From NCBI GenBank assembly GCA_963665815.1, contig OY762463.1, positions 1,472,001 to 1,536,000 on the forward strand: a stretch of DNA of 64,000 nucleotides, read 5' to 3'. Within the stretch, counting starts at the first letter, position 1. The number at the start of each line of letters is the position of its first letter. The translations under genes and the position numbers were made by a program. This stretch comes from Candidatus Cloacimonadales bacterium (GTDB taxonomy: Bacteria > Cloacimonadota > Cloacimonadia > Cloacimonadales > JAIOQZ01). Below, one piece after another: positions 638 to 39,059 of the stretch. The notes beneath the pieces are model-generated. The model was not told the origin of the DNA and searched no databases. It saw nothing but the letters and a program-made list of their open reading frames with translations.

Positions 638-638
638 T

Positions 639-1400
639 CTAACTGAATCTTGCAATCAAAAGATCGAATGCACCAGCCAGCTTTAGTACAGCAACAACAA
701 TTGATACCATAATCACGTATTTAATGAACTTATCACCTTTCTTGATTGCAGAATGAACACCAATCTGTCCACCAATAATATTTCCTATTCCCAATGGAAT
801 TGCGTAAGTCCAGTTGATCTTCCCGGACACGATGAAAATTGAAAGTGCTATAACTGTATAAATCATGATAATATTAAGTTTTAAGGCGTTTATCTCCAGC
901 AGATCCATATCATCCATTATAAATTGCAGAACAGCAATAAGCAGTAAACCAACACCAAGTTGAATGAATCCACCATAGAATCCTGCGATAAAAAGCAGCA
1001 CATAATGCCAGAAACGAGATTTAGTATGATGAGACAGTTTCTTCTTATTTGGCATGAAGTTCATGATGATCACAAACACAAGAACAACTATCAGAACTTT
1101 ATCGAATACTGCAGCTGAAACATACTTTGCCAGCAGTGTACCACAGATACCTCCAATAATTACAGGGGCAACAATGTACTTCTTTTCCTTTATGGGGACT
1201 ATCCCATGTCTGTACAAAGAAAAGAGGCTTGTAATTTTGTGAGAGAATATTCCAACTCTGTTTGTTGCGTTTGCTATATTTGAAGGAAGCCCGAACATTA
1301 TCATAAATGTAAGAGAAAAAACAGAGCCTCCCCCGGACATTGTGTTAATAAATCCGGCAATACCTCCACCTATAACCAAAAGTATAAATTGTAATATCAT
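639..1400 (-). CDS. Sulfite exporter TauE/SafE family membrane protein
   Basis: Hydrophobic 253 aa with 'AGFINTMSGGG', 'ANATNR' and 'GFYGGFIQLGVG' motifs. Confidence 0.85.
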   Translation of the reverse strand: MILQFILLVIGGGIAGFINTMSGGGSVFSLTFMIMFGLPSNIANATNRVGIFSHKITSLFSLYRHGIVPIKEKKYIVAPVIIGGICGTLLAKYVSAAVFDKVLIVVLVFVIIMNFMPNKKKLSHHTKSRFWHYVLLFIAGFYGGFIQLGVGLLLIAVLQFIMDDMDLLEINALKLNIIMIYTVIALSIFIVSGKINWTYAIPLGIGNIIGGQIGVHSAIKKGDKFIKYVIMVSIVVAVLKLAGAFDLLIARFS

Positions 1401-3121: not shown

Positions 3122-3348
3122 TAATATCTGTCATTAACAGGATTAAGCCTTATAATGTTTATAGCTTGAACGCCTTTTTCAGTATCTATGAGGTCAAATT
3201 CAACTTCTTCGTCCTGAACAAGTGTCTTGAGTTCGCTTGGAGACTGAGTTACAATTGATTTCCAGTGTACGAAGTATTCACTTTTTTCTTCAGTTATTAT
3301 AAAACCGTAGCCCTTGTTTGCATTAAACCATTTTACTTTTCCGTTCAT
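3121..3348 (-). CDS. Cold-shock domain protein
   Basis: 'GKVKWFNANKGYGFI' (RNP1) and 'YFVHWKSI' (RNP2). Confidence 0.92.
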   Translation of the reverse strand: MNGKVKWFNANKGYGFIITEEKSEYFVHWKSIVTQSPSELKTLVQDEEVEFDLIDTEKGVQAINIIRLNPVNDRY

Positions 3349-3369
3349 TTTATTCCTTTTGTTATGGTA

Positions 3370-3395
3370 GAACGGCTCTCGAACGAGAGCCGTTC
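3370..3395 (-). terminator. Perfect inverted repeat between ppdK and the cold-shock gene (terminator or mRNA-stabilising hairpin)
   Basis: gaacggctctcg-aa-cgagagccgttc; no U-tract follows on the minus strand. Confidence 0.5.
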
Positions 3396-3407
3396 AATTA
3401 AATAATT

Positions 3408-6128: not shown

Positions 6129-6581
6129 TTTTCCTCCAAGTGATTATTTATTAAAACTTTAAATATCATTGTTTTTTGCACGGTTAAATTAAGTTTACCC
6201 TTTTCTGTGTCAAGGGAATATTTACCATCTGTTTATGTTTCAATAACTAAAAAAAACTATCACTTAATTCTTCAGTGCAATTTCATTTACGACATTCATT
6301 TATTTGAATAGCTAATAGTTATCTCTATGTATGATCACAAATTAAACGCTTATACAATGATAATATTACAAAATATTCGAATAACACAAATCAATTATTC
6401 TTTTAACACTGTTTTTTTGTTTATAATTAATATTTAGTTATTTTGGGGTTAATTTTGACATTCATACTTCCGGAACATACATTATAGATAAATGAAATTA
6501 GTTGACAAAATGTATCATTATGTTTAGTAAATGATAATTTTGTATAATTAGGATATAAACAAAAAATAGACAGGTCTTACA

Positions 6582-9500: not shown

Positions 9501-9830
9501 TATACCTATTCTGAAGCTGACGATGGACTGGCAGCAATAGAAATCTATAAAAAAACATTGAATTCCTCTAAGAGATTCGATGCAGTATTGATGGACCTTA
9601 CTGTTCCTGGTGGCATGTCCGGAAAAGAAGCTGTTCAGGAGATACTTAAAATTGACCCCAATGCGCAAGTTATTGTTATAAGTGGCTATTCCCGCGATCC
9701 TATATTAGCCAATTACAGCGACTACGGTTTTGTGGGCAAACTGGTTAAACCTTTCCAGATGCAGGAGATGAAAGAAGTTCTGAATAAAGTTATTAAGAAG
9801 GATGAAATGCATCAAAATCCCCAGTTGTAA
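6582..9830 (+). CDS. Hybrid sensor histidine kinase (periplasmic substrate-binding, PAS x3, HisKA, HATPase, receiver)
   Basis: 'YPPFEF' binding domain, TM segment, 'GGIAHDFNNIL', 'FDPYFTTK..GHGLGL', receiver 'ILIMDD...MDLTVPG...KPF'. Confidence 0.93.
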   Translation: MTLKKTIIISLFLILIVSLNCNISLTDEEKLFLSEKQEIVFVGQTNYPPFEFINENNMYDGMIIEQIRWISTELGFKAVFTHKSFSEAQADVLSGKADVISSFFYSEKRDEDFDFTETIYDVPAIIFVKKERTDIKDIADLNNKIIAIQKGDYAEEYLNSMNVQHRVLWTDDFEEALFSVIDGTADAIIGDEQIVLYEIYKQRLTDKIKTVGSPLYIGQDCMAVKEGNTILVDILKKGIKHSKDSGVYARIYQKWLGTSLNQQSDLWGKYANTIIYISLFIICVFIIAFIWIKKLKIEVHKRTVQLSTVNEELKREIEENSKVTEKLFENEMKFRNLSEQMMNGVAVVRNNRYIWVNSTFETVTGLSRDQLIDNEHRIFRFPKNRIDSDLVKWNDIVKHHEGKTFEAEVMTRDEKIYVDISMKTITFGKESAIQIIISDITARKNAELKLIDISDKNKALLDSIPDLMFVHDIDGKIIDFNSKGNTVLLLPERDVINTDLSDLPLSNETIELVIENIREALRTGETQTVRYSFSLNSNEMYYEAKISRLNDTQALSLVRDVTQTMELLEAVEKDREFLSVTLDSIGDAVIICDTNGNILLLNKVAEDLTGFYRSECEGSNLEEVFKVVNNKTGNTIISPVRKVLDTGKIQGVQDSSILISRTGRKYSISTNAAPIVTKDGNILGVVLVFRDETQKRRIEEEASKAQKLESIGILAGGIAHDFNNILTAINGNISLARLIEDEEKKGKYLSHAEKAVEQAKKLSMQLLTFSKGGDPIRETVSIKEIIEDSAGFVLRGSKVKCNLTFQEDLKPASLDKGQFSQVIQNIVLNANQAMPDGGSIDIKASNAILSDSNDYALAGGDYVKIEIRDSGGGISQENLEKIFDPYFTTKTDGHGLGLAIVYSIIKKHHGLITFESIVGHGTIVTILLPSADKKFERIDEEPDTTPDGKGHILIMDDNDDVRAIIGSSLNYLGYTYSEADDGLAAIEIYKKTLNSSKRFDAVLMDLTVPGGMSGKEAVQEILKIDPNAQVIVISGYSRDPILANYSDYGFVGKLVKPFQMQEMKEVLNKVIKKDEMHQNPQL

Positions 9831-16766: not shown

Positions 16767-18560
16767 ATGAGTAATGTTAAACTTATGATTAACAACATTG
16801 AGGTAGAAGTACCTCAAGGTACAACGTTAATCCAGGCTGCGAAGAAAGCAGGTTACAAGGTTCCTACATTATGTTACCACCCAGACTGGAAACCGACTTC
16901 AGCATGTGGTGTTTGTATTGTAGATATCGAAGGCTCTCCAGTCCCAAAAAGAGCTTGTTCAACAGAAGTTTGGGAAGGAATGAAAGTAACCACAAACAGC
17001 AAAAAACTCCGTGAAGCAAGAAAAACTCTCATTGAACTTATACTTGCAAATCACGATGTTACATGTCCTACATGTGTTGCGAATGGTAAATGTGAATTAC
17101 AGGAAATCGCTTATACATTAGATATCGATCCTGAAGCTGTTCCTAGCATGCTTAAAAAAGTTCCTGTTGATCATTCTTCAGTTTCCATAATCAGAGACGT
17201 AAACAAATGTATCAACTGTGGACGCTGTGTTCAGGTTTGTTCAGATGGTCAGACAGTTAATGCACTGACATTCTCAAATCGTGGATTCGAAACAAAAATC
17301 GATACAGCTTTAAGCCTTGGTATGGCTAACTCTGTATGTGTTAATTGTGGTCAGTGTACAGTATACTGCCCAACAGGCGCATTACATGAAAAAGACGATA
17401 CAGCAAAAGTATGGGATGCTCTTCTTGATCCTACAAAACACGTTGTAGTACAGGAAGCTCCATCTATCCGTGCATCACTCGGTGAAGAATTCGGAATGGA
17501 ATTTGGTGAAGTAAATATTGGTAAAATGTATGCAGCACTTAAGAGACTTGGTTTCGACGGTGTATTCGATACAAACTTTACTGCTGACCTTACAATCATC
17601 GAAGAAGGTTCAGAAGTTGTTGATCGTGTTGTTAATGGTGGTCCATTACCATGTATAACATCATGTTCACCAGGCTGGGTAAAATTCATGGAAACATTCT
17701 TCCCTGATCTTGCACACCATGTATCAACTGCAAAGTCACCTCAGCAAATGATGGGTACTCTTGCAAAAACATACTATGCTGAACAAAAAAGTATTGATGC
17801 AAAAGATATAGTATCTGTATCAATCATGCCTTGTACAGCTAAGAAATTCGAAGCTCAAAGAGATGAAATGTCTGATTCTAAATATCAAGACGTAGATTAC
17901 GTTCTTACAACAAGAGAATTAATCAGAATGATTCACGAAGCAGGTATGGATTTCAAAAACCTTCCTGAAGAAGAACCATATTATGAACTTTCACATCACA
18001 CTGGTGCCGGAACTATTTTTGGTGCTACAGGTGGTGTTATGGAAGCTGCACTGCGTTCAGTATACTGGCTGGTAAATAAAAAAGACCTTGGTGATGTAGA
18101 AATAACACCTGTTCGTGGTCTTAAAGGTATCAAAGAAGCTGAAGTTGCTCTCACACCAGACCTTACTGTTAAAGTTGCAGTTGCTCACGGACTTGGAAAT
18201 GCAAGAAAACTCATGGAAAAAGTTCAAAAGCAAATCAAAGAAACAGGTAAGAGCGAATATACATTCATCGAAATCATGGCTTGCCCTGGTGGATGTGTTG
18301 GCGGTGGTGGACAACCATTCGGTAACTCAATGGCTGACCGTGCACGCCGTGGAGAAAGACTGTATGAAGATGATAGAAATCTTCCTGCAAGATGCTCACA
18401 CCATAACGAAGCTGTAATGGGACTCTATGGCGAAGGTAACTTCCTTCCTGAAGGTCCTGGTGGTCATAAAGCTCACCATCTGCTTCATACTCACTATTAC
18501 TCAAGAGAAAAATTCAAGGGTCAAATAGTTGAGCAAGTTACAGGTAAAGATCATCACTAA
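16767..18560 (+). CDS. hydA: [FeFe]-hydrogenase catalytic subunit, group A
   Basis: H-cluster motifs 'TSCSPGW', 'MPCTAKKFE', 'EIMACPGGCVGGGG'; N-terminal 2Fe-2S, His-ligated 4Fe-4S and 2x4Fe-4S motifs. Confidence 0.96.
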   Translation: MSNVKLMINNIEVEVPQGTTLIQAAKKAGYKVPTLCYHPDWKPTSACGVCIVDIEGSPVPKRACSTEVWEGMKVTTNSKKLREARKTLIELILANHDVTCPTCVANGKCELQEIAYTLDIDPEAVPSMLKKVPVDHSSVSIIRDVNKCINCGRCVQVCSDGQTVNALTFSNRGFETKIDTALSLGMANSVCVNCGQCTVYCPTGALHEKDDTAKVWDALLDPTKHVVVQEAPSIRASLGEEFGMEFGEVNIGKMYAALKRLGFDGVFDTNFTADLTIIEEGSEVVDRVVNGGPLPCITSCSPGWVKFMETFFPDLAHHVSTAKSPQQMMGTLAKTYYAEQKSIDAKDIVSVSIMPCTAKKFEAQRDEMSDSKYQDVDYVLTTRELIRMIHEAGMDFKNLPEEEPYYELSHHTGAGTIFGATGGVMEAALRSVYWLVNKKDLGDVEITPVRGLKGIKEAEVALTPDLTVKVAVAHGLGNARKLMEKVQKQIKETGKSEYTFIEIMACPGGCVGGGGQPFGNSMADRARRGERLYEDDRNLPARCSHHNEAVMGLYGEGNFLPEGPGGHKAHHLLHTHYYSREKFKGQIVEQVTGKDHH

Positions 18561-18614
18561 ATAAAAATTTTGCGAAGGACAAAATTTAATATTAAAAATT
18601 TATATAATTAAATG

Positions 18615-18642
18615 TTGTCTGACTGTAATAATTTAGTATAAT
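18615..18642 (+). promoter_or_regulatory. Putative sigma70-type promoter of the maturation operon
   Basis: TTGTCT-16 nt-TATAAT. Confidence 0.55.
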
Positions 18643-18663
18643 ATAGAAAAAGAATTTATTACT

Positions 18664-18755
18664 ATCCTGAGATGAAGGAGTAAATCTAACATTCAGGGAT
18701 GGGGAGATAGATACTATTATAACCTCCGTGTCCCTGTGTGGACCGGAGGTTTTTT
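18664..18755 (+). promoter_or_regulatory. Attenuator-like leader (5' hairpin / antiterminator / terminator covering the RBS)
   Basis: Terminator aacctccg-t-gtcc/ggac-cggaggtt-tttt (18721-18755); antiterminator 18694-18706/18724-18736; competing hairpin 18664-18700. Confidence 0.6.
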
Positions 18756-18756
18756 C

Positions 18757-19005
18757 GTGAAAAGAATACATAATATTTCTATAACAGTTTATGAACGTGA
18801 AACAGCGTACAAACAGGTAAATACTATTTTACACGACTACGCAGAGGAACTTTTACTGCGTGTGGGGTATCCGGTTAAAGACCGTGATATAGCAATTATT
18901 TTTCTCGTTGCAGAAATGACAACTGACGAACTCGGAGCACTGACAGGAAAATTGGGTCAGATTAAATCCGTGAAAGTCAAATCAACAACTTTAAAAACAA
19001 ATTAA
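18757..19005 (+). CDS. TM1266 family iron-only hydrogenase system regulator (ACT-like)
   Basis: 'VNTILHDYAE.LLLRVGYP...LGALTGKLGQI.SVKVKS'; GTG 18757 follows GGAGG; lies directly before hydG. Confidence 0.85.
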   Translation: MKRIHNISITVYERETAYKQVNTILHDYAEELLLRVGYPVKDRDIAIIFLVAEMTTDELGALTGKLGQIKSVKVKSTTLKTN

Positions 19006-19021
19006 AAATACAGAGGTAATT

Positions 19022-20428
19022 ATGGTACTTGACACAACAGGTCTTAAATCATTCATCCCGAATGACAAAATCTTTGAGGATCTTGCAAAAGCAAAGAATC
19101 CTGACAGATTACAAATCAAGGATATTATCCAGAAATCACTGGATAAAAACCGTCTTGATCCATTTGAAATGGCATGTCTGATAAACGCTACCGACGAAGA
19201 TCTTGTAGAAGAAATAAAACAGGGAGCACGTACACTTAAAGAAAGAGTATACGGCAACAGAATCGTCCTTTTTGCTCCTCTTTATGTTGGAAACGACTGT
19301 ATTAATGACTGTGTATACTGCGGATTCAGATCTTCAAATACTGAAGCTGAAAGAAACACTCTCACCATGCAGAAACTCGGTATGGAAGTTGAATCACTGG
19401 TGGATAATGGACACAAACGACTGATCATGGTATACGGTGAACACCCTAAGTACGATGCTCAATTCATTCATGACACAGTAATGAAAGTCTATGCTACTAA
19501 GAAAGGAAACGGGGAAATCCGTCGCGTTAATATCAACGCAGCTCCACTTGATGTAGAAGGCTACAAAATTGTTAAAAAAGCCGGAATTGGTACTTACCAG
19601 ATTTTCCAGGAAACATACCACGAAGAAACTTACAAACAAGTTCACCCTCGCGGACCTAAGAGCAACTATCTGTGGAGACTTCACGGTCTGGACAGAGCTA
19701 TGGAAGCAGGAATTGATGATCTTGGAATCGGTGCTCTCATGGGCTTGTATGACTGGCGTTTTGAAGTAATGGGACTGCTTTATCACACAATGCACCTTGA
19801 AGAACGCTTTAACATTGGACCTCATACCATTTCATTCCCAAGAATTGAACCTGCTTTTAATACCGATTTCACCAAACGACCACCTCATCTTGTATCAGAT
19901 GATGACTTCAAAAAACTGGTTGCTATTCTTCGACTTGCGGTTCCATACACCGGACTGATTCTCACTGCTCGTGAGCCGATTGACATCCGTAATGAAGTAA
20001 TCAATTATGGTGTATCCCAAATAGATGCAGGATCAGCTATCGGTATTGGAGATTACTCTTCAGAAGACCATACCAACAAGAAAGAGCAGTTCACACTATC
20101 AGATTCCAGAACACTTGATGAAGTAATCAAAGAACTTGCAGACCATAACTTTATTCCTAGTTTCTGCACAGGTTGTTACAGGCTTGGACGTACAGGTGAA
20201 CACTTCATGGAATTTGCCATTCCGGGATTCGTTAAACGATATTGCTCTCCTAATGCAATCCTTACATTCCTCGAATATGTTGAAGACTATGCTACTCCTG
20301 AATCAAGAGCTTCAGGAATCAAACTTATTGAAAGAGAACTTGAAAAGCTTGAAGACAGCAAAATGAAAGCTGAAGTTGAAAGCAGAATCCAGAGGATTAA
20401 AAACGGTGAAAGAGACTTATACTTCTAA
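19022..20428 (+). CDS. hydG: [FeFe]-hydrogenase maturase HydG
   Basis: 'LFAPLYVGNDCINDCVYCGF', 'GPHTISFPRIEP', C-terminal 'SFCTGCYRLGRTG...C.PNA'. Confidence 0.96.
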   Translation: MVLDTTGLKSFIPNDKIFEDLAKAKNPDRLQIKDIIQKSLDKNRLDPFEMACLINATDEDLVEEIKQGARTLKERVYGNRIVLFAPLYVGNDCINDCVYCGFRSSNTEAERNTLTMQKLGMEVESLVDNGHKRLIMVYGEHPKYDAQFIHDTVMKVYATKKGNGEIRRVNINAAPLDVEGYKIVKKAGIGTYQIFQETYHEETYKQVHPRGPKSNYLWRLHGLDRAMEAGIDDLGIGALMGLYDWRFEVMGLLYHTMHLEERFNIGPHTISFPRIEPAFNTDFTKRPPHLVSDDDFKKLVAILRLAVPYTGLILTAREPIDIRNEVINYGVSQIDAGSAIGIGDYSSEDHTNKKEQFTLSDSRTLDEVIKELADHNFIPSFCTGCYRLGRTGEHFMEFAIPGFVKRYCSPNAILTFLEYVEDYATPESRASGIKLIERELEKLEDSKMKAEVESRIQRIKNGERDLYF

Positions 20429-21830
20429 AGAGATAAGAACACAAAAAATGGATGATAGCGAAGTCCCGGCAAACTCAATGTACGGATCGCAGACCTGTAG
20501 AGCATTGGATAACTTTGGGGTATCTCCAGAGAAGATGTACACTATGTTCATCAAGGCTTTTGCTTATGTGAAACAGGCCTGTGTCAGAACAAACAGTCTG
20601 CTTGGCTATATGAATCAGGAAAAAGCTGATCTGATAGAAGCAGTTTGCAAAGAGATCATTGCGGGAGAACATCATGATGAATTTGTTGTCTCTCCTTTCC
20701 AGGGTGGAGCAGGAACTTCGACTAACATGAACTTCAATGAGGTTATAGCGAACTTAGCCAATGCGAAAGCTGGGCAAGCTAAAGGAGAATTCAGTTATAT
20801 ACATCCTCTGAAAGATGTTAATATGCATCAGTCAACGAACGATGTTTATCCTACATCACTGAAAGTCGCAATACTCCTGTATCTTAAAGAGTTGGAAAAG
20901 AGCATAACCTTTTTACAGGAAGCCTTGCAGGAGAAAGAGCGTGAGTTTCAGAATGTTGTTAAGACCGGCAGAACCCAACTCCAGGATGCAGTTCCCTTGA
21001 CTCTTGGAATGGAGTTCAGTGCATATTCAGATGCAATAGCCCGTGACAGGTGGCGTATCTTTAAATCGAGAGAAAGAATTAAAGTTGTGAATCTTGGTGG
21101 GACAGCTATTGGAACCGGACTTGGAGCACCACGAAAATACATCTTCAAAGTTACTGAAGTGTTGAGAAGACTTACTGGACTTAATCTTGCCAGAGGTGAA
21201 AATCTGGTTGATGCAACCCAGAATGTCGATGCTTTTGCAGAAGTTTCCGGAATGCTCAAGGCTTTTGCGGCAAACCTGTTCAAGATTGCGAATGACCTTC
21301 GACTGCTGAGCAGTGGACCTCAGGGAGGACTTGGAGAAATTAATCTACCCAAAGTGCAGAAGGGATCAACAATCATGCCGACAAAGGTAAATCCGGTAAT
21401 TCCGGAGTTTGTTGCTCAATCAGCCCTGCAGGTAATGGGAAATGATGCAGTTATAACTCAGGTAACTGCACTGGGAAATCTTGAGCTGAACCAGTTTCTG
21501 CCACTGCTTACACATAACATCATGCAGTCGCTGGAGCTGCTGAATACTGCTTCTATCAAATTCAGAACGCATTGTATTGACGGTATTACAGCCAATGAAG
21601 AAGTATGCAGGCAAAAATTGTATAATTCTCCTATAATTGCAACTGTTCTTGTCCCGGTTCTTGGATACGATAAAGTGGAAGAAATTGTAACGGAAGCAGG
21701 TAAGAATAAACAATCAATAAGCGAATATCTAACAGAAAACAAGATAATCAGTGAAGAAAAAATCCAGGAGATTCTGTCTCCTACAAAAATGTACAAATTA
21801 GGATATACGGATGATGAATTACGATTTTAA
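20406..21830 (+). CDS. aspA: Aspartate ammonia-lyase family protein
   Basis: 'QGGAGTSTNMN', 'QSTNDVYPT', 'GRTQLQDA', 'GSTIMPTKVNPVIPE'; start uncertain (GTG 20406 or TTG 20376). Confidence 0.85.
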   Translation: MKETYTSKEIRTQKMDDSEVPANSMYGSQTCRALDNFGVSPEKMYTMFIKAFAYVKQACVRTNSLLGYMNQEKADLIEAVCKEIIAGEHHDEFVVSPFQGGAGTSTNMNFNEVIANLANAKAGQAKGEFSYIHPLKDVNMHQSTNDVYPTSLKVAILLYLKELEKSITFLQEALQEKEREFQNVVKTGRTQLQDAVPLTLGMEFSAYSDAIARDRWRIFKSRERIKVVNLGGTAIGTGLGAPRKYIFKVTEVLRRLTGLNLARGENLVDATQNVDAFAEVSGMLKAFAANLFKIANDLRLLSSGPQGGLGEINLPKVQKGSTIMPTKVNPVIPEFVAQSALQVMGNDAVITQVTALGNLELNQFLPLLTHNIMQSLELLNTASIKFRTHCIDGITANEEVCRQKLYNSPIIATVLVPVLGYDKVEEIVTEAGKNKQSISEYLTENKIISEEKIQEILSPTKMYKLGYTDDELRF

Positions 21831-22890
21831 AAATCTATCAAAACAACAAATGATCGAGGTTTTTCAATCCGAAGATCAAGCTCTTATAGAGGAGCTTTAC
21901 AGGCAGGCTTATGCTGTAAAAGAACAGCATGTAGGCAAGAAAGTATATTTCAGAGGAATAATCGAGCTTAGTAATATCTGCGATAAGGACTGTTTTTATT
22001 GCGGTATCAGGAAAAGCAACAGCAAAGTAAACAGATATTTCATGAAGAAAGAAGAGATCCTGGAAGCAGCAGAATGGTCCTGGAAGATGAATTACGGGTC
22101 AGTAGTGCTGCAGTCCGGAGAACGTTGTGACAAAGAGTTTGTAGACTATATTGAAGACCTTCTGATCAACATCAAAAAGCTGTCCAATCAGGAGCTGGGA
22201 ATCACACTTTCTCTGGGTGAACAATCAAAAGAAACCTACAGAAGATGGTTCGAAGCCGGTGCAACAAGATACCTGCTGAGAATTGAGTCCAGCAATGAAG
22301 AACTGTACAAAAGTTTGCATCCTGCAACACACGATCATACAGAGAGACTTAGATGTCTGGAATACTTGCGTGAAACGGGTTATCAGGTTGGAACAGGAGT
22401 AATGATCGGACTGCCTAATCAGACTTACGAAGATCTGGTTAACGACATCATGTTCTTCAAGGAACACGATATTGATATGATTGGAATGGGACCTTATGTT
22501 GTGCATCAGGATACTCCTTTGGCGAATTCAATGCCTGATTATGACAAGAAAATTCAGCTTGGAAAAGCTCTGAAGATGATCTCCTTGACTCGTATGTTCC
22601 TGAAGGATGTCAATATTGCCTCCACAACAGCTTTGCAGGCACTTGATCCGCTAGGAAGAGAGTATGGGCTCAAAGCCGGGGCGAATATTATCATGCCCGT
22701 TCTTACAGATACTAAATACAGAGAAAAGTACCTTTTATATAATGACAAACCATGTGTTGATGAAAATGCAACCATGTGCAGAGCATGTCTGGAGAACAGA
22801 ATTGAATCTGTTGGTGAAACAATAGGCTATGGGGAACTTGGTGATTCTCCTCACTTTAAGGCAAGGAGTAAAGATGCCGGCAATACCTAA
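21811..22890 (+). CDS. hydE: [FeFe]-hydrogenase maturase HydE
   Basis: 'RGIIELSNICDKDCFYCGIR', 'YLLRIES', 'DMIGMGP', 'YLLYNDKPC'. Confidence 0.93.
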   Translation: MMNYDFKNLSKQQMIEVFQSEDQALIEELYRQAYAVKEQHVGKKVYFRGIIELSNICDKDCFYCGIRKSNSKVNRYFMKKEEILEAAEWSWKMNYGSVVLQSGERCDKEFVDYIEDLLINIKKLSNQELGITLSLGEQSKETYRRWFEAGATRYLLRIESSNEELYKSLHPATHDHTERLRCLEYLRETGYQVGTGVMIGLPNQTYEDLVNDIMFFKEHDIDMIGMGPYVVHQDTPLANSMPDYDKKIQLGKALKMISLTRMFLKDVNIASTTALQALDPLGREYGLKAGANIIMPVLTDTKYREKYLLYNDKPCVDENATMCRACLENRIESVGETIGYGELGDSPHFKARSKDAGNT

Positions 22891-24073
22891 AGGTGAACGT
22901 TGTAACATTGCTATCATTGGTAAACGTAACGCAGGGAAATCTTCTCTGATAAACGCCATGACAAGTCAGGATATATCTATTGTATCCAATACTCCCGGAA
23001 CAACAACTGATCCGGTTAAGAAGAATTATGAGCTGCTGCCCATTGGACCGGTTTCTATAATTGATACAGCAGGGATAGATGACCTTGGTGAGCTTGGGGA
23101 GAAGCGTGTGAAGTCAACACGTAAAGTACTCTGGCGAACAGATATTGCTCTTGTTGTAACAGATGAACACGGAATAACCGATGATGTAAAAGCAATCATT
23201 GAGGAAGTGCAAAATCTTAACATAACCACAATGGTTGTGTTTAACAAGAATGATATTGCAGATGTAGACAAGTCTAATAAAGACTACTGTAGATCACTTG
23301 GTTTGCCTTATATCTCAGTTTCCAGTATATCAGGAAAAAACATCCGAGATTTGAAAGAAAAAATGGCTGATCTGGTTCCGACGGAGTTTCTTGCTGAACG
23401 AGTTCTTGTCGGTGATCTGGTTAACCCCGGGGATCAGGTTGTGCTGGTTGTTCCCATTGACTTAGCTGCCCCTAAAGGCAGACTGATAATGCCGCAGGTT
23501 CAGGTATTGAGAGAAATCCTTGATAACGATGCAATAGGTATTATGGTTAAAGAACGTGAGCTGGAAGACTCTCTCATGAAGCTGAAAGATCCACCAGACT
23601 TGATTATTACTGACTCTCAGGTGATCCTTAAGGTTGACGGAGATGTACCGGAAGAGATTCCTCTGACAACATTCTCAACGCTTTTTGCACGCTATAAAGG
23701 AGAACTTAACATGCTTGTTGATGGTGCATCTGCAATTGATAAGCTGGAAGACGGAGACAAGGTTGTTATAGCTGAATCCTGTTCCCATCATGTTCAGGCT
23801 GATGATATTGGTAGAGTCAAGATTCCCCGGTGGTTGAGACAGTATACCGGTAAGGATATTAAGTTTGATGTATACTCAGGTCATGATTTCCCGGATAATC
23901 TGGAGGAGTATAAGCTTGTGCTTCATTGTGGTGCATGTATGACAAACAGAATGGAGATGATCCGCCGTATGCGCGAGTGTAACCGTCGAGGTGTCCCAAT
24001 AACCAATTACGGAGTTGCAATATCCAAGCTCCATGGAGTACTGGATAGAGTAATCAAACCATTTTATAAATAG
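22874..24073 (+). CDS. hydF: [FeFe]-hydrogenase maturation GTPase HydF
   Basis: 'GKRNAGKSS', 'DTAG', 'NKND', 'CSHH...HCGAC'; ATG 22874 follows AAGGAG. Confidence 0.96.
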   Translation: MPAIPKGERCNIAIIGKRNAGKSSLINAMTSQDISIVSNTPGTTTDPVKKNYELLPIGPVSIIDTAGIDDLGELGEKRVKSTRKVLWRTDIALVVTDEHGITDDVKAIIEEVQNLNITTMVVFNKNDIADVDKSNKDYCRSLGLPYISVSSISGKNIRDLKEKMADLVPTEFLAERVLVGDLVNPGDQVVLVVPIDLAAPKGRLIMPQVQVLREILDNDAIGIMVKERELEDSLMKLKDPPDLIITDSQVILKVDGDVPEEIPLTTFSTLFARYKGELNMLVDGASAIDKLEDGDKVVIAESCSHHVQADDIGRVKIPRWLRQYTGKDIKFDVYSGHDFPDNLEEYKLVLHCGACMTNRMEMIRRMRECNRRGVPITNYGVAISKLHGVLDRVIKPFYK

Positions 24074-24120: not shown

Positions 24121-24154
24121 AAAAAAAACCAGCCCTCTGAATGAAGGCTGGTTT
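24121..24154 (-). terminator. Intrinsic terminator of the convergent minus-strand gene
   Basis: aaaccagcc...ggctggttt with an A8 tract (U-tract on the minus strand). Confidence 0.75.
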
Positions 24155-24199: not shown

Positions 24200-27100
24200 T
24201 TATTTAAGCATCAGCATTTTCTTAGTTTGTGATACTTCAGAGGTTTGCAGTCTGTAGAAGTATACTCCACTTGATACTGAGTTTCCTCTGTCATCTTTAC
24301 CATTCCAGGTAACCTTGTGGTTATCTGCTTCCATTTCTTCACTTACAAGCGTTCTTACTTTCTGTCCGTTAATATTGTAGACAGCAAGTTCTACGTTTCC
24401 GGCTTTCTTAAGTGAGAATTCAATGTGTGTAGTAGGATTGAATGGGTTAGGATAGTTACCTTTAAGTTCTGTAACAAGATTTACATCATCAGGATCGTTT
24501 GCAACTTCTTCAAATGTGAAATCAAAATCTGGAGCTGCTGCGGTACCTGTTTCATATACTGCTGTGATTGTAGCAGTAAGTTGTTCTCCAATGTTAAATC
24601 CTGTCACTGTGAAGAATGTATCTGATGTTGTTTGATTAATAATATCAATTTCAACTCTGAAATACATGAATTGACGTTCGTCTTCTTCATTATCAGAATC
24701 TCTTTCAACATAAGATGATCCTTCAACAAGTGCTGATTCTCCATCTGTTCTTGTTCCGTACAGTCTGTCTCCATGCTGCCATACAAGGATACGATCATTA
24801 TTAAGCCATTGAACGTTTGTAGGAGCAATAAGGATTTCATCAAGAGTAACATCAACAGGAGTATTGTCACCATTTACAATAACAATATTCTGTTGTTCGT
24901 GAATGTTACAGTCCGGAAGTGAAGCTGTAAGATTGTATGTTCCCGGAAGAACTTCGCTGAGAAGAACAACACCGGTATCATCAGATGTCTCTGTATATGT
25001 GTTTGTTCCGTCAGTAAGTTCTACAACTGCACCGGCTGGTGAACTGAGATTGGTTGTGATGTTAACAGTAAAGTGACCGTATTCGTTGAGAATAATATCA
25101 AGATCAACTGTTGCATCCGCTGCGATAACTACGTTAGATTCAGTTTGATCAATATATCCGTCTTTAGTTGCATTAACAGTATATGTTCCCGGAGTAACCT
25201 GTACAAATGTGTAGTTACCCTGAGCATCTGTTGTTGTTGTAATAGCAAGTTGTTCGATTTCAACAAGAGCTCCGGCAACTTCAACATTAGCATGATCGTA
25301 AACAGTACCCATGAGGATTGCTCCCTGAGTCATAGTGAAGTCAACGTTTGTGAGGTTGTCCTGAGTTACTACGACATTAGTTTGTGTATTATTATCGTAG
25401 TTTGTAAGACTTGCAGTTACTGTGTAGGTCTCAACAGGAACATTGAGGAATTGATAGAATCCATTATTACCTGTATATTGTACAGTCTGAAGTTCTTCAA
25501 TCAGTACTTGAGCGTTAAACAGTGGGTTTCCATTGATATCACGTACATAACCTTGAATACCTGTTTGTGATGGCTGAACATCAACAGGAAGTGGAGCTGA
25601 ATTATCATTACCAGGACCTTCGTCGTTAGCAAGAACAACTTTACCGAAGATATTCTGATTACCTTCCATACCATTTTGTGGAGTCCAGGTGATCACGTAA
25701 TCAAGAATTTGATTGTTTGCAATTGTTGTACCTGCAACAGTTCCAAGTTCAGTATCCGGAGCAAGCATGAGTTTTACATCATATGTAGATTGAGTATTCA
25801 GACCGTTGTTTCTTACAGAGATTGTATAGTCAGAAGGTGATCCAACCATTGGAGTTGTGTTACCAACAACAGTGATTACTGTAAGATCATCGTTTGGTGG
25901 AGTTGTAATGTTAATACCGACATCATCAAGATACAAGTCAGGACCATATCCTGAGATACCATCAAACTTAACATAAATTGTCTGACCACTGTACTGATCA
26001 ATATTTATAGTTTCCTGTATAAATGTACCAGGAGTAGTGTTTCCTGCTCCGTCACTTGATTCGAACTGATCTCCCATTCTTGACCATACAACACTCCAGT
26101 TTGTCTGATCTGTAGAAATAGAAACTTCCATTGCATCATTCGGATAACTTGCATTATATGCATGAGACCATTTGAATACAAGATCAGCATTTCCTGTCAG
26201 AGCAATTGGAGGTGAGTAAAGTTCTGCATTACCAGTGCTCCAGCCCCAGAAGTTACAGTAAGCACTTCCTGAACCGCTATGTTCCGCCCATTGTTGAGTT
26301 CCACCCATATACCAGCCTCTTGTGTCAAGTGGCCATACGCTGAAATCTTCAGTCCATGGGAAGTTAACTACTGATGGGTCAGGTCTTGTTGTGTAAGACC
26401 AGACAGGGCAGCCAGTTGCATCACCGAGAGTGTTGTAAGGTACGATAGTCCAGTAGTATGTAGTTGCGAATGACAGATTGTTGTAATCATAAGTTAATAC
26501 ATTACCAATATCTGTTCCATCTTCAATATTTGTTGGTGGATTATCTGTTCCGAAGTAGATTTTATAACCTGTAGCTCCTGGAGCTCCACGCCAGCTCATT
26601 GTTCCACCTTCCATTACCGGATTTTCAGCATCCATTGGTGAATTTGGAATTGTGCATGAAGGTGCTACGTTATTATCGAATATTGTGAAATCATCTACAG
26701 ATATATCACTATAGAAGCTTGAAGAACCGATAGCTCTGAATCTGAATTGCAGGTCTGTTGAGCTATAAGTTGTAAGATCAATAGATCCTAAAGTCCAGGC
26801 AGGGCTGTAAGTGTAGCTTGCAACTCCCATGTTCCATGAACCGTTACTGTAAATGTCTATGTAGAATGTTGACTGTTCCTGAGCAGATTGGTCAGGATGT
26901 CCAATCCAGTAGTTAAATTCAACTACAGGATTTGTAAGAGCTGTGATATCATAAATCGTTGATGTTGCCCACGCTGAATCAACTCCGGTTCCACTATCTG
27001 TGAAATGAATGAAGTATCCTGTACCGGAAGTGTTATCAAATGTTGCACCATATGTTGATGATGTTGCAAGAGACCAGTTATCATTATCAAGATAGATTTC

Positions 27101-29758
27101 ATTATGCCAGTCTGCAAGCAATGTTGTATCTTCAAAAGCCATTACGTATGGGAATGTTGTGACAGTGGGATCACTTCTTGTTGTGAATGACCATACAGGA
27201 CAACCTGTTGCATCACCTATTGTATTATAAGGCACTACAGTCCAGTAATATGTTGTGCTGTAACTTAATCCTTCATATGAGTAATAGTATGAGGCACCGA
27301 GGTCTAAACCATCTTCAATATTTGTTGGAGGATTGTCAGTACCAACATATATTTTGTAACCTGTTGCTCCCTGTGCTCCCATCCAGCCAATACGACCGTA
27401 CTCAAGTAAATCATTTTCTGCATCTTGTGGATACTGAAGAGATGTACATGCCGGAGGAATGTTGTTGTCATATATAGCAAGATCATCAATACATATGTCA
27501 CTGTAAAAATCACTTCCTGTTGTTCCAACAAACTCTATCATAAATGGGTTAGCATTATAAGGAGTAAGGTCAACAGTTACATTATACCAGACATCTCCCT
27601 GATCCCCGGATATAGGTTGAATAACATCAGCAGTCACAGTTCCTGTAACTATGTCAATTACATTAACCTGTAATGTTCCCATTGTTTGACCATACATGTG
27701 ATACCAGAATTCAAATGTAGGAGCTGAAAGCCCTGACACGTTAAATGGGTTTGTTTTCATTTTGAAAAGCTGATTGTTGTTACCGGATGCTTCAGTATAC
27801 ATGAAGTAACCGGCTCCTGTTGTGTGGTCACCGGATTGTGGACCAGTAGCAGTAGATGATGTTGAAGTACCGTATGACCATGGATCCATATTAGTCGGAT
27901 CATCAATCCAGTTCATTGGTATTGCACCGGTTTCAAAGTCTTCAGAATATGGGAATGCAGAAATAATTGGATCTGCTCTTGTTGTGAATGACCATACAGG
28001 ACATGCAGTGGCGTCTCCATTTACATTATATGGTGTTACCATCCAGTAGTATGTTGTTCCGAATGAAAGACCTGAATAGTCGTAAGAAAGGGCTGCACCA
28101 ACATCAAAATGATCAACAATATTAGTTGGCGGGTTATCTGTACCAAGTGAAATTTTGTAATCTGTAGCACCTTGTGCACCACCCCACATCAATGTTCCAG
28201 TTTCAAGAACATCAACTGACATATCAGCAGGTATTGCAGCATTTGAACATCCCGGAGCGGTTGTATTGTCGTAGATTCCTACATCATCAATACTGATATC
28301 ACTGTAATAATCTGAACCTGTAGTTCCAATAAATTCAACCTGAAATTCCCCTGTATATGAAGATAAGTCGATAGATGCGCTATTCCATACATCTCCCTGA
28401 TCACCACTGATAGGTGTAATAACATCTGCATGTAATGTTGCTGTTGCAGGTTCATAAACATTTACCTGAAGAGATCCCATTGTTTGTCCATACATGTGAT
28501 ACCAGAATTCGAATACAGGAGCTGTAAGAGCTGATGTATTATAAGTTGGAGATGTCACTTTAAATACCTGATTTGTATTACCGGATGCTTCAGTATACAT
28601 GAAGTAACCGGCTCCTGTTGTGTGGTCACCGGATTGTGGACCAGTAGCAGTAGATGATGTTGAAGTACCGAATGACCATGGATCCAAATTTGCTGCATCT
28701 TCAACCCAGCAAGATGGAAGTACTCCACCTTCAAAATCTTCTGCCCATGGGAATGTTACGATTGTTCCACATTGAGTCTCAAATGTCCAGATTGCACCTG
28801 TAGTTGAAAGCCTTGTGGTTGAATTGTGAGTATCTACTCTCCATTCATAGTCAGTTAGTGTATTAAGACCATTATATGTATATGATCCTGTAGCCCCTGC
28901 TGCTGCACCTGTTACAACCTGAGTCATATTGCCGGCAGGACCAAACCACAAATCATAAGTCTCTGTGTCTGCTCCGAAATCCCATGTTAATGTACCATCC
29001 ACAAGTATACCTGTTGAACCTGATGGCGGATTAGGATTCTGAGCAAATTCAGGGTAACCTGCTTCTACCGTGTAGTATTTTATTGCGAGTTGATCTGAAA
29101 GATTTGATGCATCGTTAAAACAGTATTCAAGACCGATTGTTCCGTCACTGTTCTCGATACCTACTGTACATCCTGCCATATCGATTCCACCATTGAAAGA
29201 ATCATACTGCATGATGATTTGTCCATTGTCACGCATGATTACCTGAGCTTCGACAAATCCTGTACCTTCACCTGAGTATTCATGATAATTCATGAAAGAG
29301 ATTAAAAGAGCGTTTGTACCTTCAAAAGTGATATTTTCATAGTAGATTCCTGCATTATTTGCAGGTGTGGTAGTACTTACAGGATCTAAGTCATCCCAGA
29401 ACCAGGCAATCATATTATTTGGAACACCGGCAGTTGGGATTGTGTAGTTCGAAAGACTGTTTGAGTCATTTGAAAATGAAATAAATCCGTTTGAACTTAA
29501 ATAGAAATCCGTGTAAGATTGATCGTAAAACGGGAAACTGAATCCAATTGAGTAAGGTCCGTCAATTGAATCATCACTTAATGTTGTTATTGTGTTTGCA
29601 TTTACAGTATCTGGAGTTATCCAGCTGAATGCAGGACCGCTTGGGTCATTACTGTTTATCCATGAGTATCCATACGCATCAGGTCCCCCTGAAGTCTGCG
29701 CATACATAAACATAATGGATAACAGAAAAAATAAGACTACAACTAGTTTCTTATTCAT
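24200..29758 (-). CDS. Large secreted multidomain protein (MAM-like and FN3-like repeats, CARDB, carboxypeptidase-regulatory repeats, FlgD-Ig/T9SS-type CTD)
   Basis: Signal peptide; 'TGPQSGDHTTG.GYFMYTEAS...FWYHMYG' MAM repeats; 'TTYYW.V.PYN..G.ATGCPVWSFTT' repeats; C-terminal 'NYPNPFNP...GVYFYRL'. Confidence 0.88.
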   Translation of the reverse strand: MNKKLVVVLFFLLSIMFMYAQTSGGPDAYGYSWINSNDPSGPAFSWITPDTVNANTITTLSDDSIDGPYSIGFSFPFYDQSYTDFYLSSNGFISFSNDSNSLSNYTIPTAGVPNNMIAWFWDDLDPVSTTTPANNAGIYYENITFEGTNALLISFMNYHEYSGEGTGFVEAQVIMRDNGQIIMQYDSFNGGIDMAGCTVGIENSDGTIGLEYCFNDASNLSDQLAIKYYTVEAGYPEFAQNPNPPSGSTGILVDGTLTWDFGADTETYDLWFGPAGNMTQVVTGAAAGATGSYTYNGLNTLTDYEWRVDTHNSTTRLSTTGAIWTFETQCGTIVTFPWAEDFEGGVLPSCWVEDAANLDPWSFGTSTSSTATGPQSGDHTTGAGYFMYTEASGNTNQVFKVTSPTYNTSALTAPVFEFWYHMYGQTMGSLQVNVYEPATATLHADVITPISGDQGDVWNSASIDLSSYTGEFQVEFIGTTGSDYYSDISIDDVGIYDNTTAPGCSNAAIPADMSVDVLETGTLMWGGAQGATDYKISLGTDNPPTNIVDHFDVGAALSYDYSGLSFGTTYYWMVTPYNVNGDATACPVWSFTTRADPIISAFPYSEDFETGAIPMNWIDDPTNMDPWSYGTSTSSTATGPQSGDHTTGAGYFMYTEASGNNNQLFKMKTNPFNVSGLSAPTFEFWYHMYGQTMGTLQVNVIDIVTGTVTADVIQPISGDQGDVWYNVTVDLTPYNANPFMIEFVGTTGSDFYSDICIDDLAIYDNNIPPACTSLQYPQDAENDLLEYGRIGWMGAQGATGYKIYVGTDNPPTNIEDGLDLGASYYYSYEGLSYSTTYYWTVVPYNTIGDATGCPVWSFTTRSDPTVTTFPYVMAFEDTTLLADWHNEIYLDNDNWSLATSSTYGATFDNTSGTGYFIHFTDSGTGVDSAWATSTIYDITALTNPVVEFNYWIGHPDQSAQEQSTFYIDIYSNGSWNMGVASYTYSPAWTLGSIDLTTYSSTDLQFRFRAIGSSSFYSDISVDDFTIFDNNVAPSCTIPNSPMDAENPVMEGGTMSWRGAPGATGYKIYFGTDNPPTNIEDGTDIGNVLTYDYNNLSFATTYYWTIVPYNTLGDATGCPVWSYTTRPDPSVVNFPWTEDFSVWPLDTRGWYMGGTQQWAEHSGSGSAYCNFWGWSTGNAELYSPPIALTGNADLVFKWSHAYNASYPNDAMEVSISTDQTNWSVVWSRMGDQFESSDGAGNTTPGTFIQETINIDQYSGQTIYVKFDGISGYGPDLYLDDVGINITTPPNDDLTVITVVGNTTPMVGSPSDYTISVRNNGLNTQSTYDVKLMLAPDTELGTVAGTTIANNQILDYVITWTPQNGMEGNQNIFGKVVLANDEGPGNDNSAPLPVDVQPSQTGIQGYVRDINGNPLFNAQVLIEELQTVQYTGNNGFYQFLNVPVETYTVTASLTNYDNNTQTNVVVTQDNLTNVDFTMTQGAILMGTVYDHANVEVAGALVEIEQLAITTTTDAQGNYTFVQVTPGTYTVNATKDGYIDQTESNVVIAADATVDLDIILNEYGHFTVNITTNLSSPAGAVVELTDGTNTYTETSDDTGVVLLSEVLPGTYNLTASLPDCNIHEQQNIVIVNGDNTPVDVTLDEILIAPTNVQWLNNDRILVWQHGDRLYGTRTDGESALVEGSSYVERDSDNEEDERQFMYFRVEIDIINQTTSDTFFTVTGFNIGEQLTATITAVYETGTAAAPDFDFTFEEVANDPDDVNLVTELKGNYPNPFNPTTHIEFSLKKAGNVELAVYNINGQKVRTLVSEEMEADNHKVTWNGKDDRGNSVSSGVYFYRLQTSEVSQTKKMLMLK

Positions 29759-39032: not shown

Positions 39033-39059
39033 AAAAAAATCTATGTACAGGAGATTTAT

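Follow-up and report, generated by a model that had tools for sequence, protein, structure and literature searches.

The pyr operons are attenuated by PyrR (RF00515) through competition between an anti-antiterminator, an antiterminator and a terminator, and PyrR represses an operon whose first gene is its own; the pyr operon of B. subtilis contains three PyrR sites. In the trp and hut leaders of Bacillus, TRAP and HutP, small oligomeric proteins that sense amino acids, bind the leader and decide termination. The HMP-PP/thiS riboswitches are small hairpins that overlap a terminator. A riboswitch candidate linked exclusively to one gene of unknown function, the yjdF motif, is described in the available text of PMC4793209, and an autoregulatory ribosomal-protein leader that is bound by S6:S18, the rpsF leader, in that of PMC3895269.

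Here we describe a leader RNA in a 64,000-nt stretch of DNA from a Candidatus Cloacimonadales bacterium (assembly GCA_963665815.1, contig OY762463.1, positions 1,472,001–1,536,000 of the forward strand), which we refer to as the window. The leader resembles that of pyr in the competition between its helices, and our proposal resembles PyrR control in that the putative regulator, a protein of the TM1266 family, comes from the first gene in the repressed operon and is assumed to be loaded with a ligand. The leader shows no homology to RF00515, PyrR has a PRTase fold and TM1266 an ACT/NikR-C fold, and there is one site per genome here as opposed to the three of B. subtilis pyr. TRAP and HutP, whose folds are also unrelated to that of TM1266, read repeated single-stranded triplets, whereas here one structured hairpin whose internal loops are conserved is the candidate site and TM1266 is proposed to be autoregulated in cis. 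With the yjdF motif and the HMP-PP/thiS riboswitches the leader shares a small conserved hairpin, a terminator that serves as an OFF platform and a near-exclusive link to a single gene of unknown function, but its constant neighbour encodes a regulatory-domain-like protein and it has no sequence or structure match in Rfam 15. As with the rpsF leader, which is always found next to the gene encoding its binding protein, a structured leader lies next to a gene whose product has a comparable fold (S6 is ferredoxin-like, TM 0.63–0.70 to TM1266), although TM1266 is not a ribosomal protein. On our analysis, TM1266 or a small molecule probably acts through this RNA to turn off the genes for [FeFe]-hydrogenase assembly.

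A conserved hairpin upstream of TM1266 and hydG

The genes 3′ of the leader are arranged in the order TM1266-hydG-aspA-hydE-hydF (Table 1); the start codon of aspA is uncertain because its listed open reading frame overlaps hydG. The promoter named in the original prediction is present and implies a leader of ~108 nt. It is kept only in a genome of the same genus, and since the leader region contains fewer promoter-like sites than expected from shuffling (18 observed, 26.9 expected), it does not rise above chance and is weak evidence. The leader itself folds with a minimum free energy (MFE) of -37.7 kcal/mol (z = -3.75), a value that none of 200 shuffled sequences equalled.

Table 1 Features of the leader and of the genes downstream of it (positions are those of the window).
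Feature	Position	Strand	Details
Promoter-like site TTGTCT-16-TATAAT	18615–18642	+	10/12 matches; TTGTCT 18615–18620, TATAAT 18637–18642
Three-helix hairpin, family core	18666–18698	+	CM R1 55.6 bits, E 1.1e-10; covariation
Antiterminator 5′ strand	18694–18706	+	Overlaps P1 3′ strand; pairs 12/13 with 18724–18736
Antiterminator 3′ strand = terminator 5′ arm	18724–18736	+	12/13 pairing, two G-U
Intrinsic terminator	18721–18755	+	Hairpin 18721–18749, UUUUUU 18750–18755; MFE
TM1266-like gene	18757–19005	+	GTG start, 82 aa, ACT/NikR-C-like fold; PF21699, TIGR03959
hydG	19022–20428	+	TIGR03955 505.9 bits
Aspartate ammonia-lyase gene (aspA)	20376–21830	+	NF008909 606 bits; Lyase_1, FumaraseC_C
hydE-like radical SAM gene	21811–22890	+	Radical_SAM 82 bits; hydE name from cluster position
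hydF	22829–24073	+	HydF_tetramer 169.9 bits, HydF_dimer 141.1 bits

At the core of the leader lies a 33-nt hairpin in which purine-rich internal loops separate three short stacked helices. P1 pairs CCU (18666–18668) with AGG (18695–18697) or, in a second possible register, with GGG (18696–18698); a GA bulge separates it from P2 (GAUG 18671–18674 with CAUU 18690–18693), and an AA/AA internal loop separates P2 from P3 (GGA 18677–18679 with UCU 18685–18687), which closes the loop GUAAA. Covariation supports both P2 and P3. In an alignment of 100 hits (A5; 94 distinct sequences), 98.8% of cells are paired and five of the ten hairpin pairs show both-sided, compensatory changes, values that 0 of 500 shuffles reached and from which pairings slid along the alignment fall far away (24–56% paired). 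An independent set (A6; 36 distinct sequences) gives 98.9% pairing and both-sided changes at three of ten pairs. Shifting P3 by one column lowers its pairing from 99.6% to 88.6%, and a potential leader peptide within the hairpin (AUG-AAG-GAG-UAA) is not kept among relatives; both were rejected.

The outer hairpin of the original prediction (atcctg 18664–18669 with cagggat 18694–18700) lies where it had been drawn. The inner agat/atct stem, said to close a purine-rich GAAGGAGUAA loop, can also be drawn in this sequence, but it is not kept in relatives, which have P2 and P3 in its place; given the covariation of these two helices, the claimed GAAGGAGUAA "loop" is half helix. Thus the expectation of conservation upstream of TM1266 relatives holds for the structure, which covaries in A5 and A6, and fails for the purine loop, which is not a conserved structure.

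The leader also bore out the suggestion that it is of no recognised RNA family, as the covariance-model search against Rfam 15 returned no family at gathering score for it; the sole above-threshold family in the window is a fluoride riboswitch at 38975–39035. A relaxed search (E up to 10, 18500–19100) brought up, overlapping the leader, GibS (21.1 bits, gathering score 115), RF00515, the PyrR binding site (19.1 bits, gathering score 54), and ncr952 (12.4 bits, gathering score 100). The best overlapping matches, GibS and PyrR, are at chance level, and among the downstream genes of the operon there is neither a PRTase-fold PyrR nor another pyr gene. A literature comparison, with the supplementary motif lists of RNA-discovery papers outside its scope, found the motif nowhere in print.

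Could the helices be chance pairings in an AT-rich intergenic region? The lack of enrichment for promoter-like sites would fit, but we regard this as practically out of the question: it is refuted by covariance-model (CM) matches with E-values of 1e-10 in hundreds of genomes, by covariation, and by the fixed position of the hairpin relative to one gene. The leader represents an undescribed family of conserved cis-acting RNA.

Mutually exclusive pairings in the leader

Two further helices had been predicted, and both are present: an antiterminator that pairs 12 of 13 positions and overlaps the other two helices, and a terminator that, in the MFE structure of the leader, buries the GGAGG ribosome-binding site. 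The terminator consists of a GC-rich hairpin followed by a U-run, and was missed by a simple scan, probably because its stem has a bulge. Its 3′ arm contains the Shine-Dalgarno sequence (18745–18749), which lies 7 nt before the GTG at 18757. The hairpin, the antiterminator and the terminator are mutually exclusive, as in attenuators. In a transcript cut at 18739 the antiterminator is the MFE structure (-23.8 kcal/mol, compared with -18.6 kcal/mol for the alternative), whereas in the full leader the combination of hairpin and terminator is preferred (-37.7 vs -29.3 kcal/mol). These alternative-fold energies, together with conservation across relatives, bear out the predicted terminator/antiterminator layout.

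Among 96 distinct leaders, 24 have a terminator hairpin whose U-run abuts the start codon and 72 do not. When the hairpin was forced to form, the accessibility of the Shine-Dalgarno sequence decreased in 48 and increased in 6 of the 72 leaders that have no terminator, and decreased in 10 and increased in none of 23 leaders with one. Covarying helices are thus combined with a variable expression platform, as in riboswitches. The 3′ strand of the hairpin is complementary to the terminator or anti-Shine-Dalgarno strand in leaders of four phyla, with different sequences. Folding of the hairpin makes available the strand that forms the terminator or covers the Shine-Dalgarno sequence, so that a bound hairpin corresponds to the OFF state, and by energy calculation the alternative pairings follow OFF logic.

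We propose that the 3′ strand of the hairpin (AAGGG and ~6 nt) would pair alternatively with the 5′ arm of the downstream terminator or, where there is no terminator, with the anti-Shine-Dalgarno strand. If the hairpin were held shut, the terminator would form and bury the ribosome-binding site, and TM1266-hydG-aspA-hydE-hydF would be OFF; if not, the antiterminator would win during transcription and the operon would be ON. TM1266, which the first gene encodes, would most likely be the factor that holds the hairpin shut, probably in a form that carries a small ligand or metal. The outcome would be a ligand-tuned negative feedback of the PyrR/TRAP/HutP type. We consider a leader switch with TM1266 as its putative effector to be the best explanation of our findings, with odds that we put slightly above even.

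The same structures could be read differently. The hairpin might be bound by another trans-acting factor (a small RNA or a GGA binder like CsrA, for example), or it might be a constitutive stability or processing element that does not switch. Two conserved elements of the form AGG(A/G) look like possible GGA-type sites for proteins, and the leader could simply terminate constitutively, since the MFE structure in the window holds both hairpin and terminator. We think this unlikely: complementarity that recurs with different sequences in four phyla would not be expected if the element were static, the RNA co-occurs with no other gene, and a global regulator would have many sites whereas the RNA occurs once per genome. 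Specifically, CM R1 has a single strong match in the 3.96-Mb genome to which the window belongs, and within the order 85 of 151 genomes have the RNA, as do 15 of 121 from Ignavibacteriales, with practically one match in each.

Association of the RNA with TM1266

The RNA occurs in hundreds of anaerobic bacteria (CM matches, E ~1e-10). Independently of any protein, a DNA pattern scan of 185,579 species genomes returned 101 stretches, 80 of which were listed and come from four FCB-group phyla; metagenomes were searched with a single TM1266 protein. Among the 80 listed loci TM1266 lies just downstream of the RNA in 79. Its open reading frame was found by HMM at 78 of them; in L161 it is present too, across an N gap, and the stretch of L154 stops at a contig edge. 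The strong CM matches that we checked lie 40–116 nt upstream of the TM1266 start, except in L095, where a TM1266 remnant is left. In 151 genomes of the order, both RNA and TM1266 are found in 83, the RNA only in 2, TM1266 only in 4 and neither in 62. All 15 RNA-positive Ignavibacteriales genomes have TM1266, which is the next gene after the RNA in 14 of 15 matches, and two further Ignavibacteriales genomes with TM1266 have weaker copies of the RNA directly upstream of it (28 and 16.4 bits). A candidate cognate regulatory protein thus co-occurs with the RNA, as in protein-dependent attenuators.

Three cases depart from this adjacency. In G299 the RNA and a terminator precede hydG with no TM1266 between them, and the TM1266 gene lies on another contig beside EamA and without the RNA, so that a trans arrangement exists. 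In G105, a 99%-complete MAG, an intact RNA (37 bits) precedes hydG, ~12 codons of TM1266 are left there, and no TM1266 gene was found elsewhere in the genome. The third, L162, is an orphan copy with a DUF362 gene running convergently towards it, and was rejected as a new regulon, as were an extra motif copy in L228, where the motif is duplicated around an AbiEi/AbiEii cassette insertion, and L103 (33.5 bits), which lies in coding-looking DNA without TM1266.

Divergent TM1266 genes have divergent hairpins. By eye, three sequences bear a divergent version of the same leader architecture, namely the leader of L258, whose TM1266 is 46% identical, and those of the G091 and G092 paralogues, which lie before a TonB receptor; this is what would be expected of co-evolving RNA-protein pairs. 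That second paralogue before a TonB receptor was found in only 2 of 151 genomes in Cloacimonadota, a number that does not allow statistics. In a divergent TM1266 subfamily (L001–L003) each leader has a terminator, and no shared leader motif was seen among the three sequences.

The RNA+TM1266 pair precedes hydG at most loci. In Ignavibacteriales a TonB-dependent receptor gene follows it in 14 of 15 loci, an EamA transporter gene was seen in both loci that were extended further, and HydF was found in none of five RNA+TM1266 genomes tested. The absence of HydF from these five, together with the TonB/EamA context, means that the module is not specific to hydrogenase. The proposed control of [FeFe]-hydrogenase maturation therefore stands in so far as the leader precedes TM1266-hydG-aspA-hydE-hydF, and needs widening in so far as the pair also precedes TonB/EamA genes in Ignavibacteriales. 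The pair moves as a unit in which TM1266 is the only constant neighbour of the RNA.

These data bear on whether the hairpin could instead be the aptamer of a new OFF riboswitch for a small molecule or ion, with TM1266 merely the first regulated gene, whose product might, for instance, bind or carry that ligand too. The RNAs of G299 and G105 fit such a riboswitch, as do conserved internal loops between covarying helices, a core that is nearly invariant across four phyla, and a platform that varies between terminator and Shine-Dalgarno sequestration, a hallmark layout. A small molecule could plausibly find its pocket in a simple hairpin of this kind, between its internal loops, and orphan candidates tied to a single gene exist, as the available text on the yjdF motif shows (PMC4793209). 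Against a riboswitch, TM1266 is the next gene in 79 of the 80 listed scan loci, whatever comes after it, and in two cross-tabulations no strong RNA match lacks at least a TM1266 remnant. Riboswitch aptamers normally sit directly before varied genes of one pathway, and we did not find the RNA before varied genes independently of one protein. Furthermore, a ligand pocket should stay fixed, whereas here hairpin and protein diverge together, and in Cloacimonadaceae the alternative fold is 10–15 kcal/mol more stable than the hairpin, a large difference for the binding of a small ligand to make up at equilibrium. We regard a riboswitch as possible but rather doubtful. Another point, against TM1266 as the effector, is that no single obvious signal readily accounts for one OFF logic acting on both an uptake receptor and maturases.

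TM1266 as a candidate RNA-binding regulator

The 82-aa protein belongs to the TM1266 family: it scores 93.5 bits with PF21699 (cut-off 27) and 88.4 bits with TIGR03959 (cut-off 60.8), its A3 profile matches 2NZC (E 2e-34), and its AF2 model (pLDDT 95.1) superimposes on 2nzc_A with TM 0.94. The family is labelled a "putative regulator" with no target given, or an "iron-only hydrogenase system regulator", and 2NZC, released in 2006, was deposited as an uncharacterised/hypothetical protein. Beyond 2NZC, NikR C-domains and ACT domains come closest in fold (TM about 0.7–0.85), whereas the RNA-binding S6 and RRM folds reach only TM 0.57–0.70. TM1266 carries no known RNA-binding motif, and we know of no rRNA mimicry for its leader.

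The nearest structural relative after 2NZC is the metal-sensing C-terminal domain of NikR (TM ~0.8). TM1266 differs in having no ribbon-helix-helix DNA-binding domain, identity is 6–18%, and in comparison with the nickel ligands of NikR only one TM1266 histidine, H26, is invariant (18-sequence alignment). NikR represses genes for TonB-dependent receptors in Helicobacter, a link that parallels the position of TM1266 before a TonB receptor in Ignavibacteriales.

We put at about even the chances of a broader reading, in which TM1266-like proteins, with their ACT/NikR-C fold, would be RNA-binding attenuation proteins of a new class that senses ligands, each matched to a hairpin of its own, and RNA and protein together would be a portable sensor cassette placed before different operons in several phyla ([FeFe]-hydrogenase maturases; a heme/iron-type TonB receptor and EamA). 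Our literature searches found nothing in print on the bacterial regulation of hydG/E/F. If the sensor-cassette reading is true, it would supply the first function for the 2NZC structure, and H-cluster assembly would gain its first dedicated regulator. For genomes in which HydF was not found (0 of 5 tested), the annotation "iron-only hydrogenase system regulator" is corrected.

The RNA supplies TM1266 with a concrete candidate target, consisting of one protein, one 33-nt hairpin and one terminator. If TM1266 binds it, the ACT-type fold would join the RNA-binding attenuation proteins; if TM1266 does not bind, the RNA would represent a new class of riboswitch, with a ligand that connects H-cluster assembly to TonB-dependent uptake. 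Either reading would offer a handle on hydrogenase maturation for engineered H2 production.

Conservation and structure of the leader RNA

The gap between hydA and the TM1266-like gene lies upstream of an array that begins with the latter and continues with hydG, the gene for an aspartate ammonia-lyase, an hydE-like radical SAM gene, and hydF. The original prediction placed a promoter, a 5′ hairpin, an antiterminator, and a terminator in this gap, and all four are found where they had been placed: a promoter-like site scores 10/12, the outer hairpin pairs, the antiterminator pairs at 12 of 13 positions, and the terminator carries GGAGG inside its 3′ arm. The leader fold beats 200 of 200 shuffles (z = −3.75); promoter-like sites are not enriched (18 observed vs 26.9 expected).

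Coordinates of features in the window and at other loci (L, locus; G, genome)
Sequence	Feature	Position (strand)	Remarks
Window	hydA	16767–18560	last gene of NuoE/NuoF/HydA trimeric hydrogenase cluster
Window	hydA–TM1266 gap	18561–18756	196 nt
Window	outer hairpin	18664–18669/18694–18700
Window	P1	18666–18668/18695–18697
Window	P2	18671–18674/18690–18693
Window	P3	18677–18679/18685–18687
Window	antiterminator	18694–18706/18724–18736
Window	terminator	18721–18755
Window	TM1266-like gene	18757 (GTG start)	82 aa; PF21699 93.5 bits, TIGR03959 88.4 bits
Window	strong hairpin terminator	24126–24154	between hydF and convergent ORF
Window	1852-aa ORF	24200–29758 (−)	convergent with hydF
Window	fluoride riboswitch RF01734	38975–39035 (+)	56.1 bits vs gathering score 34
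L095 (G105)	RNA, TM1266 remnant	157–310 (+)
L103	isolated R1 match	155–200 (+)	33.5 bits
L228	two RNA copies, toxin–antitoxin cassette	299–2436 (+)
L276	Ignavibacteriales receptor locus	6306–9760 (−)
L277	Ignavibacteriales receptor locus	1420–4892 (+)
L278 (G299)	RNA, terminator, hydG	3949–4349 (−)
L279 (G299)	TM1266, EamA gene	1489–2648 (+)
L284	second TM1266, TonB receptor	1217–3291 (+)	G091/G092 pair
L285	second TM1266, TonB receptor	1700–3780 (+)	G091/G092 pair

We searched 41 related genomes with PF21699 and inspected the upstream DNA of every match. The predicted conservation upstream of TM1266 homologues is borne out by a shared motif (CCTGAGATGARGG, a short loop, and TCTGACATCAAGGG, as DNA) that is present at 22 of the 25 loci matching the window's protein, with a 23rd copy positioned further upstream at L026. 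The motif is absent from the two remaining loci, L001 and L003, which encode a divergent TM1266 subfamily. Genes of this subfamily (L001, L002, and L003; ~34% identity, Pfam scores of 112–117 bits) lack the motif in the ~200 nt upstream and are each preceded by their own terminator-like hairpin and U-run; no common motif was seen among these three leaders. In the 3.96-Mb genome that contains the window, a covariance model built from the 22 copies (R1) finds one strong match (55.6 bits, E 1.1e-10; runner-up 18.5 bits, E 0.56). It matches 85 of the 151 genomes sampled from the order, almost always with a single copy, and 94 of 151 genomes of the "phylum" sample.

The structure was scored on 100 matches (94 distinct rows). 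A first register for P3, one column off, paired 88.6% of cells and was abandoned after the rows were read. The 33-nt core comprises P1 (CCU with AGG, then a GM bulge opposite a single A), P2 (GAUG with CAUC, then a 2×2 purine loop), and P3 (GGA with UCY, closed by a variable loop of 3–14 nt); because its letters are invariant, P1 could pair CCU with either AGG or GGG. Under the corrected register 98.8% of cells pair, and both sides change in 5 of the 10 pairs (e.g. GGUG/CACC, GAUU/AAUC, GAAG/CUUC, and U-A for A-U in P3), bearing out the covariation looked for. None of 500 shuffles reaches the observed values and slid controls pair at 24–56%; these pairing counts come from alignments fitted to a model of similar structure, and kinship among the sequences inflates the shuffle tests. 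An independent set of 36 distinct rows, drawn from metagenomes and Ignavibacteriales, is 98.9% paired, with compensatory changes in 3 of 10 pairs that include new types (GAUA/UAUC and AGUG/CACU). Since the covarying P2 and P3 occupy the positions concerned, the inner agat/atct stem and purine "loop" proposed at first are not the conserved fold.

As had been suspected, the leader fits no Rfam 15 family at gathering thresholds; the sole family over threshold in the window is the fluoride riboswitch. A permissive scan of 18500–19100 gave chance-level matches only (GibS, 21.1 bits vs 115; PyrR, 19.1 vs 54). Among the literature matches listed for TM1266, nothing on RNA appears in the titles and abstract openings, and the portion of PMC3543383 available makes no hydG–riboswitch connection. 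The words "hydrogenase" and "hydG" do not occur in the main text of the RNA-discovery papers PMC11109978, PMC8632094, and PMC6429828. In the accessible part of Pagnier et al. 2024 (PMC11736057), aspA in hyd operons is read as an ammonium source, and the word "regulator" is absent.

Association with TM1266 and downstream genes

The strong R1 matches that we fetched sit 40–116 nt 5′ of a TM1266 start, with the single exception of L095 (37.2 bits), which precedes only a TM1266 remnant. Separately, the match at L103 is in DNA that looks coding, has no TM1266 close by, and may be chance or a relic. To avoid choosing loci by protein, we scanned 185,579 species genomes with a stringent DNA pattern describing the RNA, which returned 101 stretches, fewer than 10 of them expected by chance on a rough estimate. 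The 80 loci among the matches listed come from Cloacimonadota, Ignavibacteriales, Marinimicrobia (Neomarinimicrobiota), and Fidelibacterota; in 78 of them an HMM finds a TM1266 ORF no more than 400 nt downstream. TM1266 also lies downstream at L161, across a run of N; L154 stops at a contig end, and L162 is an orphan copy with a DUF362 gene converging on it. Conversely, metagenome TM1266 loci carry the RNA in 31 of 35 cases, the upstream DNA being cut off in 3; at the metagenome locus L258 (46% identity) the hairpin has diverged but keeps the architecture, and it is accompanied by an antiterminator and a terminator of its own.

Across the order sample (151 genomes), 83 genomes have both RNA and TM1266, 2 the RNA only (G105 and the borderline G014, E 0.0099), 4 TM1266 only, all of the divergent subfamily, and 62 neither. 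The corresponding counts for 121 Ignavibacteriales genomes are 15, 0, 2, and 104, and the two with TM1266 only have weaker RNA copies directly upstream (28 and 16.4 bits, filters off).

The proposal that the leader controls [FeFe]-hydrogenase maturation genes fits most loci, with hydG next after TM1266 at 72 of the 78 scored, but not as an exclusive role. The six others comprise three Ignavibacteriales loci and three where a contig end limits what can be read. In Ignavibacteriales, 14 of 15 matches are followed by TM1266 and then a TonB-dependent receptor gene. At two extended loci (L276 and L277) the receptor (~770 aa) is followed by an EamA-family transporter (~290 aa); L133, annotated separately, is a third receptor locus. 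In NCBIfam the receptor scores best against a heme/hemoglobin receptor family (213 bits, under the cut-off of 317). HydF (PF18133) was found in none of five such genomes, three of which have contigs >3.7 Mb, which argues that the pair is a portable module and not a hydrogenase-only regulator.

Two further arrangements were observed. At L228, two RNA copies flank an AbiEi/AbiEii cassette inserted in the leader of a TM1266-hydE-hydG operon. G091 and G092, both Cloacimonadota and the only 2 of 151 genomes to do so, encode a second TM1266 (39–42% identity) before a TonB receptor, with a leader hairpin that by eye appears diverged (CUGAGA ... UCAAGG; R1 score only 10.9 bits).

Computed switch logic

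Among 96 distinct leaders, 24 have a terminator like that of the window, made of a GC hairpin and a run of 5 or more U that directly adjoins the start codon, with the Shine-Dalgarno sequence in the 3′ arm; the other 72 do not. In both kinds, and visibly in Ignavibacteriales leaders, the hairpin's 3′ strand, together with ~6 nt, can base-pair with the terminator 5′ arm or the anti-Shine-Dalgarno strand. Forcing the hairpin lowers computed Shine-Dalgarno accessibility in 48 of the 72 leaders without a terminator (raising it in 6) and in 10 of 23 terminator leaders (raising it in none); one further leader defied parsing. When the window transcript is cut at 18739 the antiterminator is favored (−23.8 kcal/mol vs −18.6 with the hairpin forced); in the full leader the hairpin and terminator are favored (−37.7 vs −29.3 with the antiterminator forced). 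Together, these energy-model results suggest that a factor stabilizing the hairpin while transcription proceeds would turn the operon OFF.

The candidate effector of the hairpin

We lean towards TM1266 itself, probably ligand-loaded, as the candidate effector that holds the hairpin, since it is the sole constant partner across different operons, its co-occurrence with the RNA is near-perfect, and diverged proteins accompany diverged hairpins. A trans arrangement also favors it: in G299 the RNA and terminator are followed by ~290 nt without a credible gene and then hydG, and TM1266 adjoins an EamA gene on a separate contig with no RNA found upstream even with filters off, so that the RNA acts on the genes that follow it and TM1266 can be provided in trans. 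A protein-free riboswitch is a serious rival, if a distinctly less probable one. The layout is riboswitch-like, single-gene association is known among riboswitch candidates, and G105 (99% complete, 190 contigs) keeps the RNA before hydG with TM1266 reduced to its last ~12 codons and none found elsewhere in that assembly; the explanation could be recent loss, faulty assembly, or an RNA that works alone.

The predicted model of TM1266 (pLDDT 95.1; beta-alpha-beta-beta-alpha-beta) matches Thermotoga maritima TM1266 (2NZC, TM-score 0.94), NikR C-domains (about 0.8), the ACT domains of IlvN and Rel (0.7–0.76), and ribosomal protein S6 and an RRM (0.57–0.70). A profile of the window's subfamily matches 2NZC at E 2e-34, with LRVGYP and SGKLGQI signatures in common. 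Candidate signals are an amino acid that HydG uses (Tyr or Cys), a metal such as iron, or a maturation by-product, and one signal must suit repression of both the maturases and the uptake receptor.

Taken together, the leader is a genuine cis-regulatory RNA, conserved and hitherto undescribed, with a computed OFF logic and a tie to TM1266 in at least four FCB-group phyla. The RNA family is new and its mechanism of a known kind; it may also bring to light an RNA-binding regulator of a new kind.
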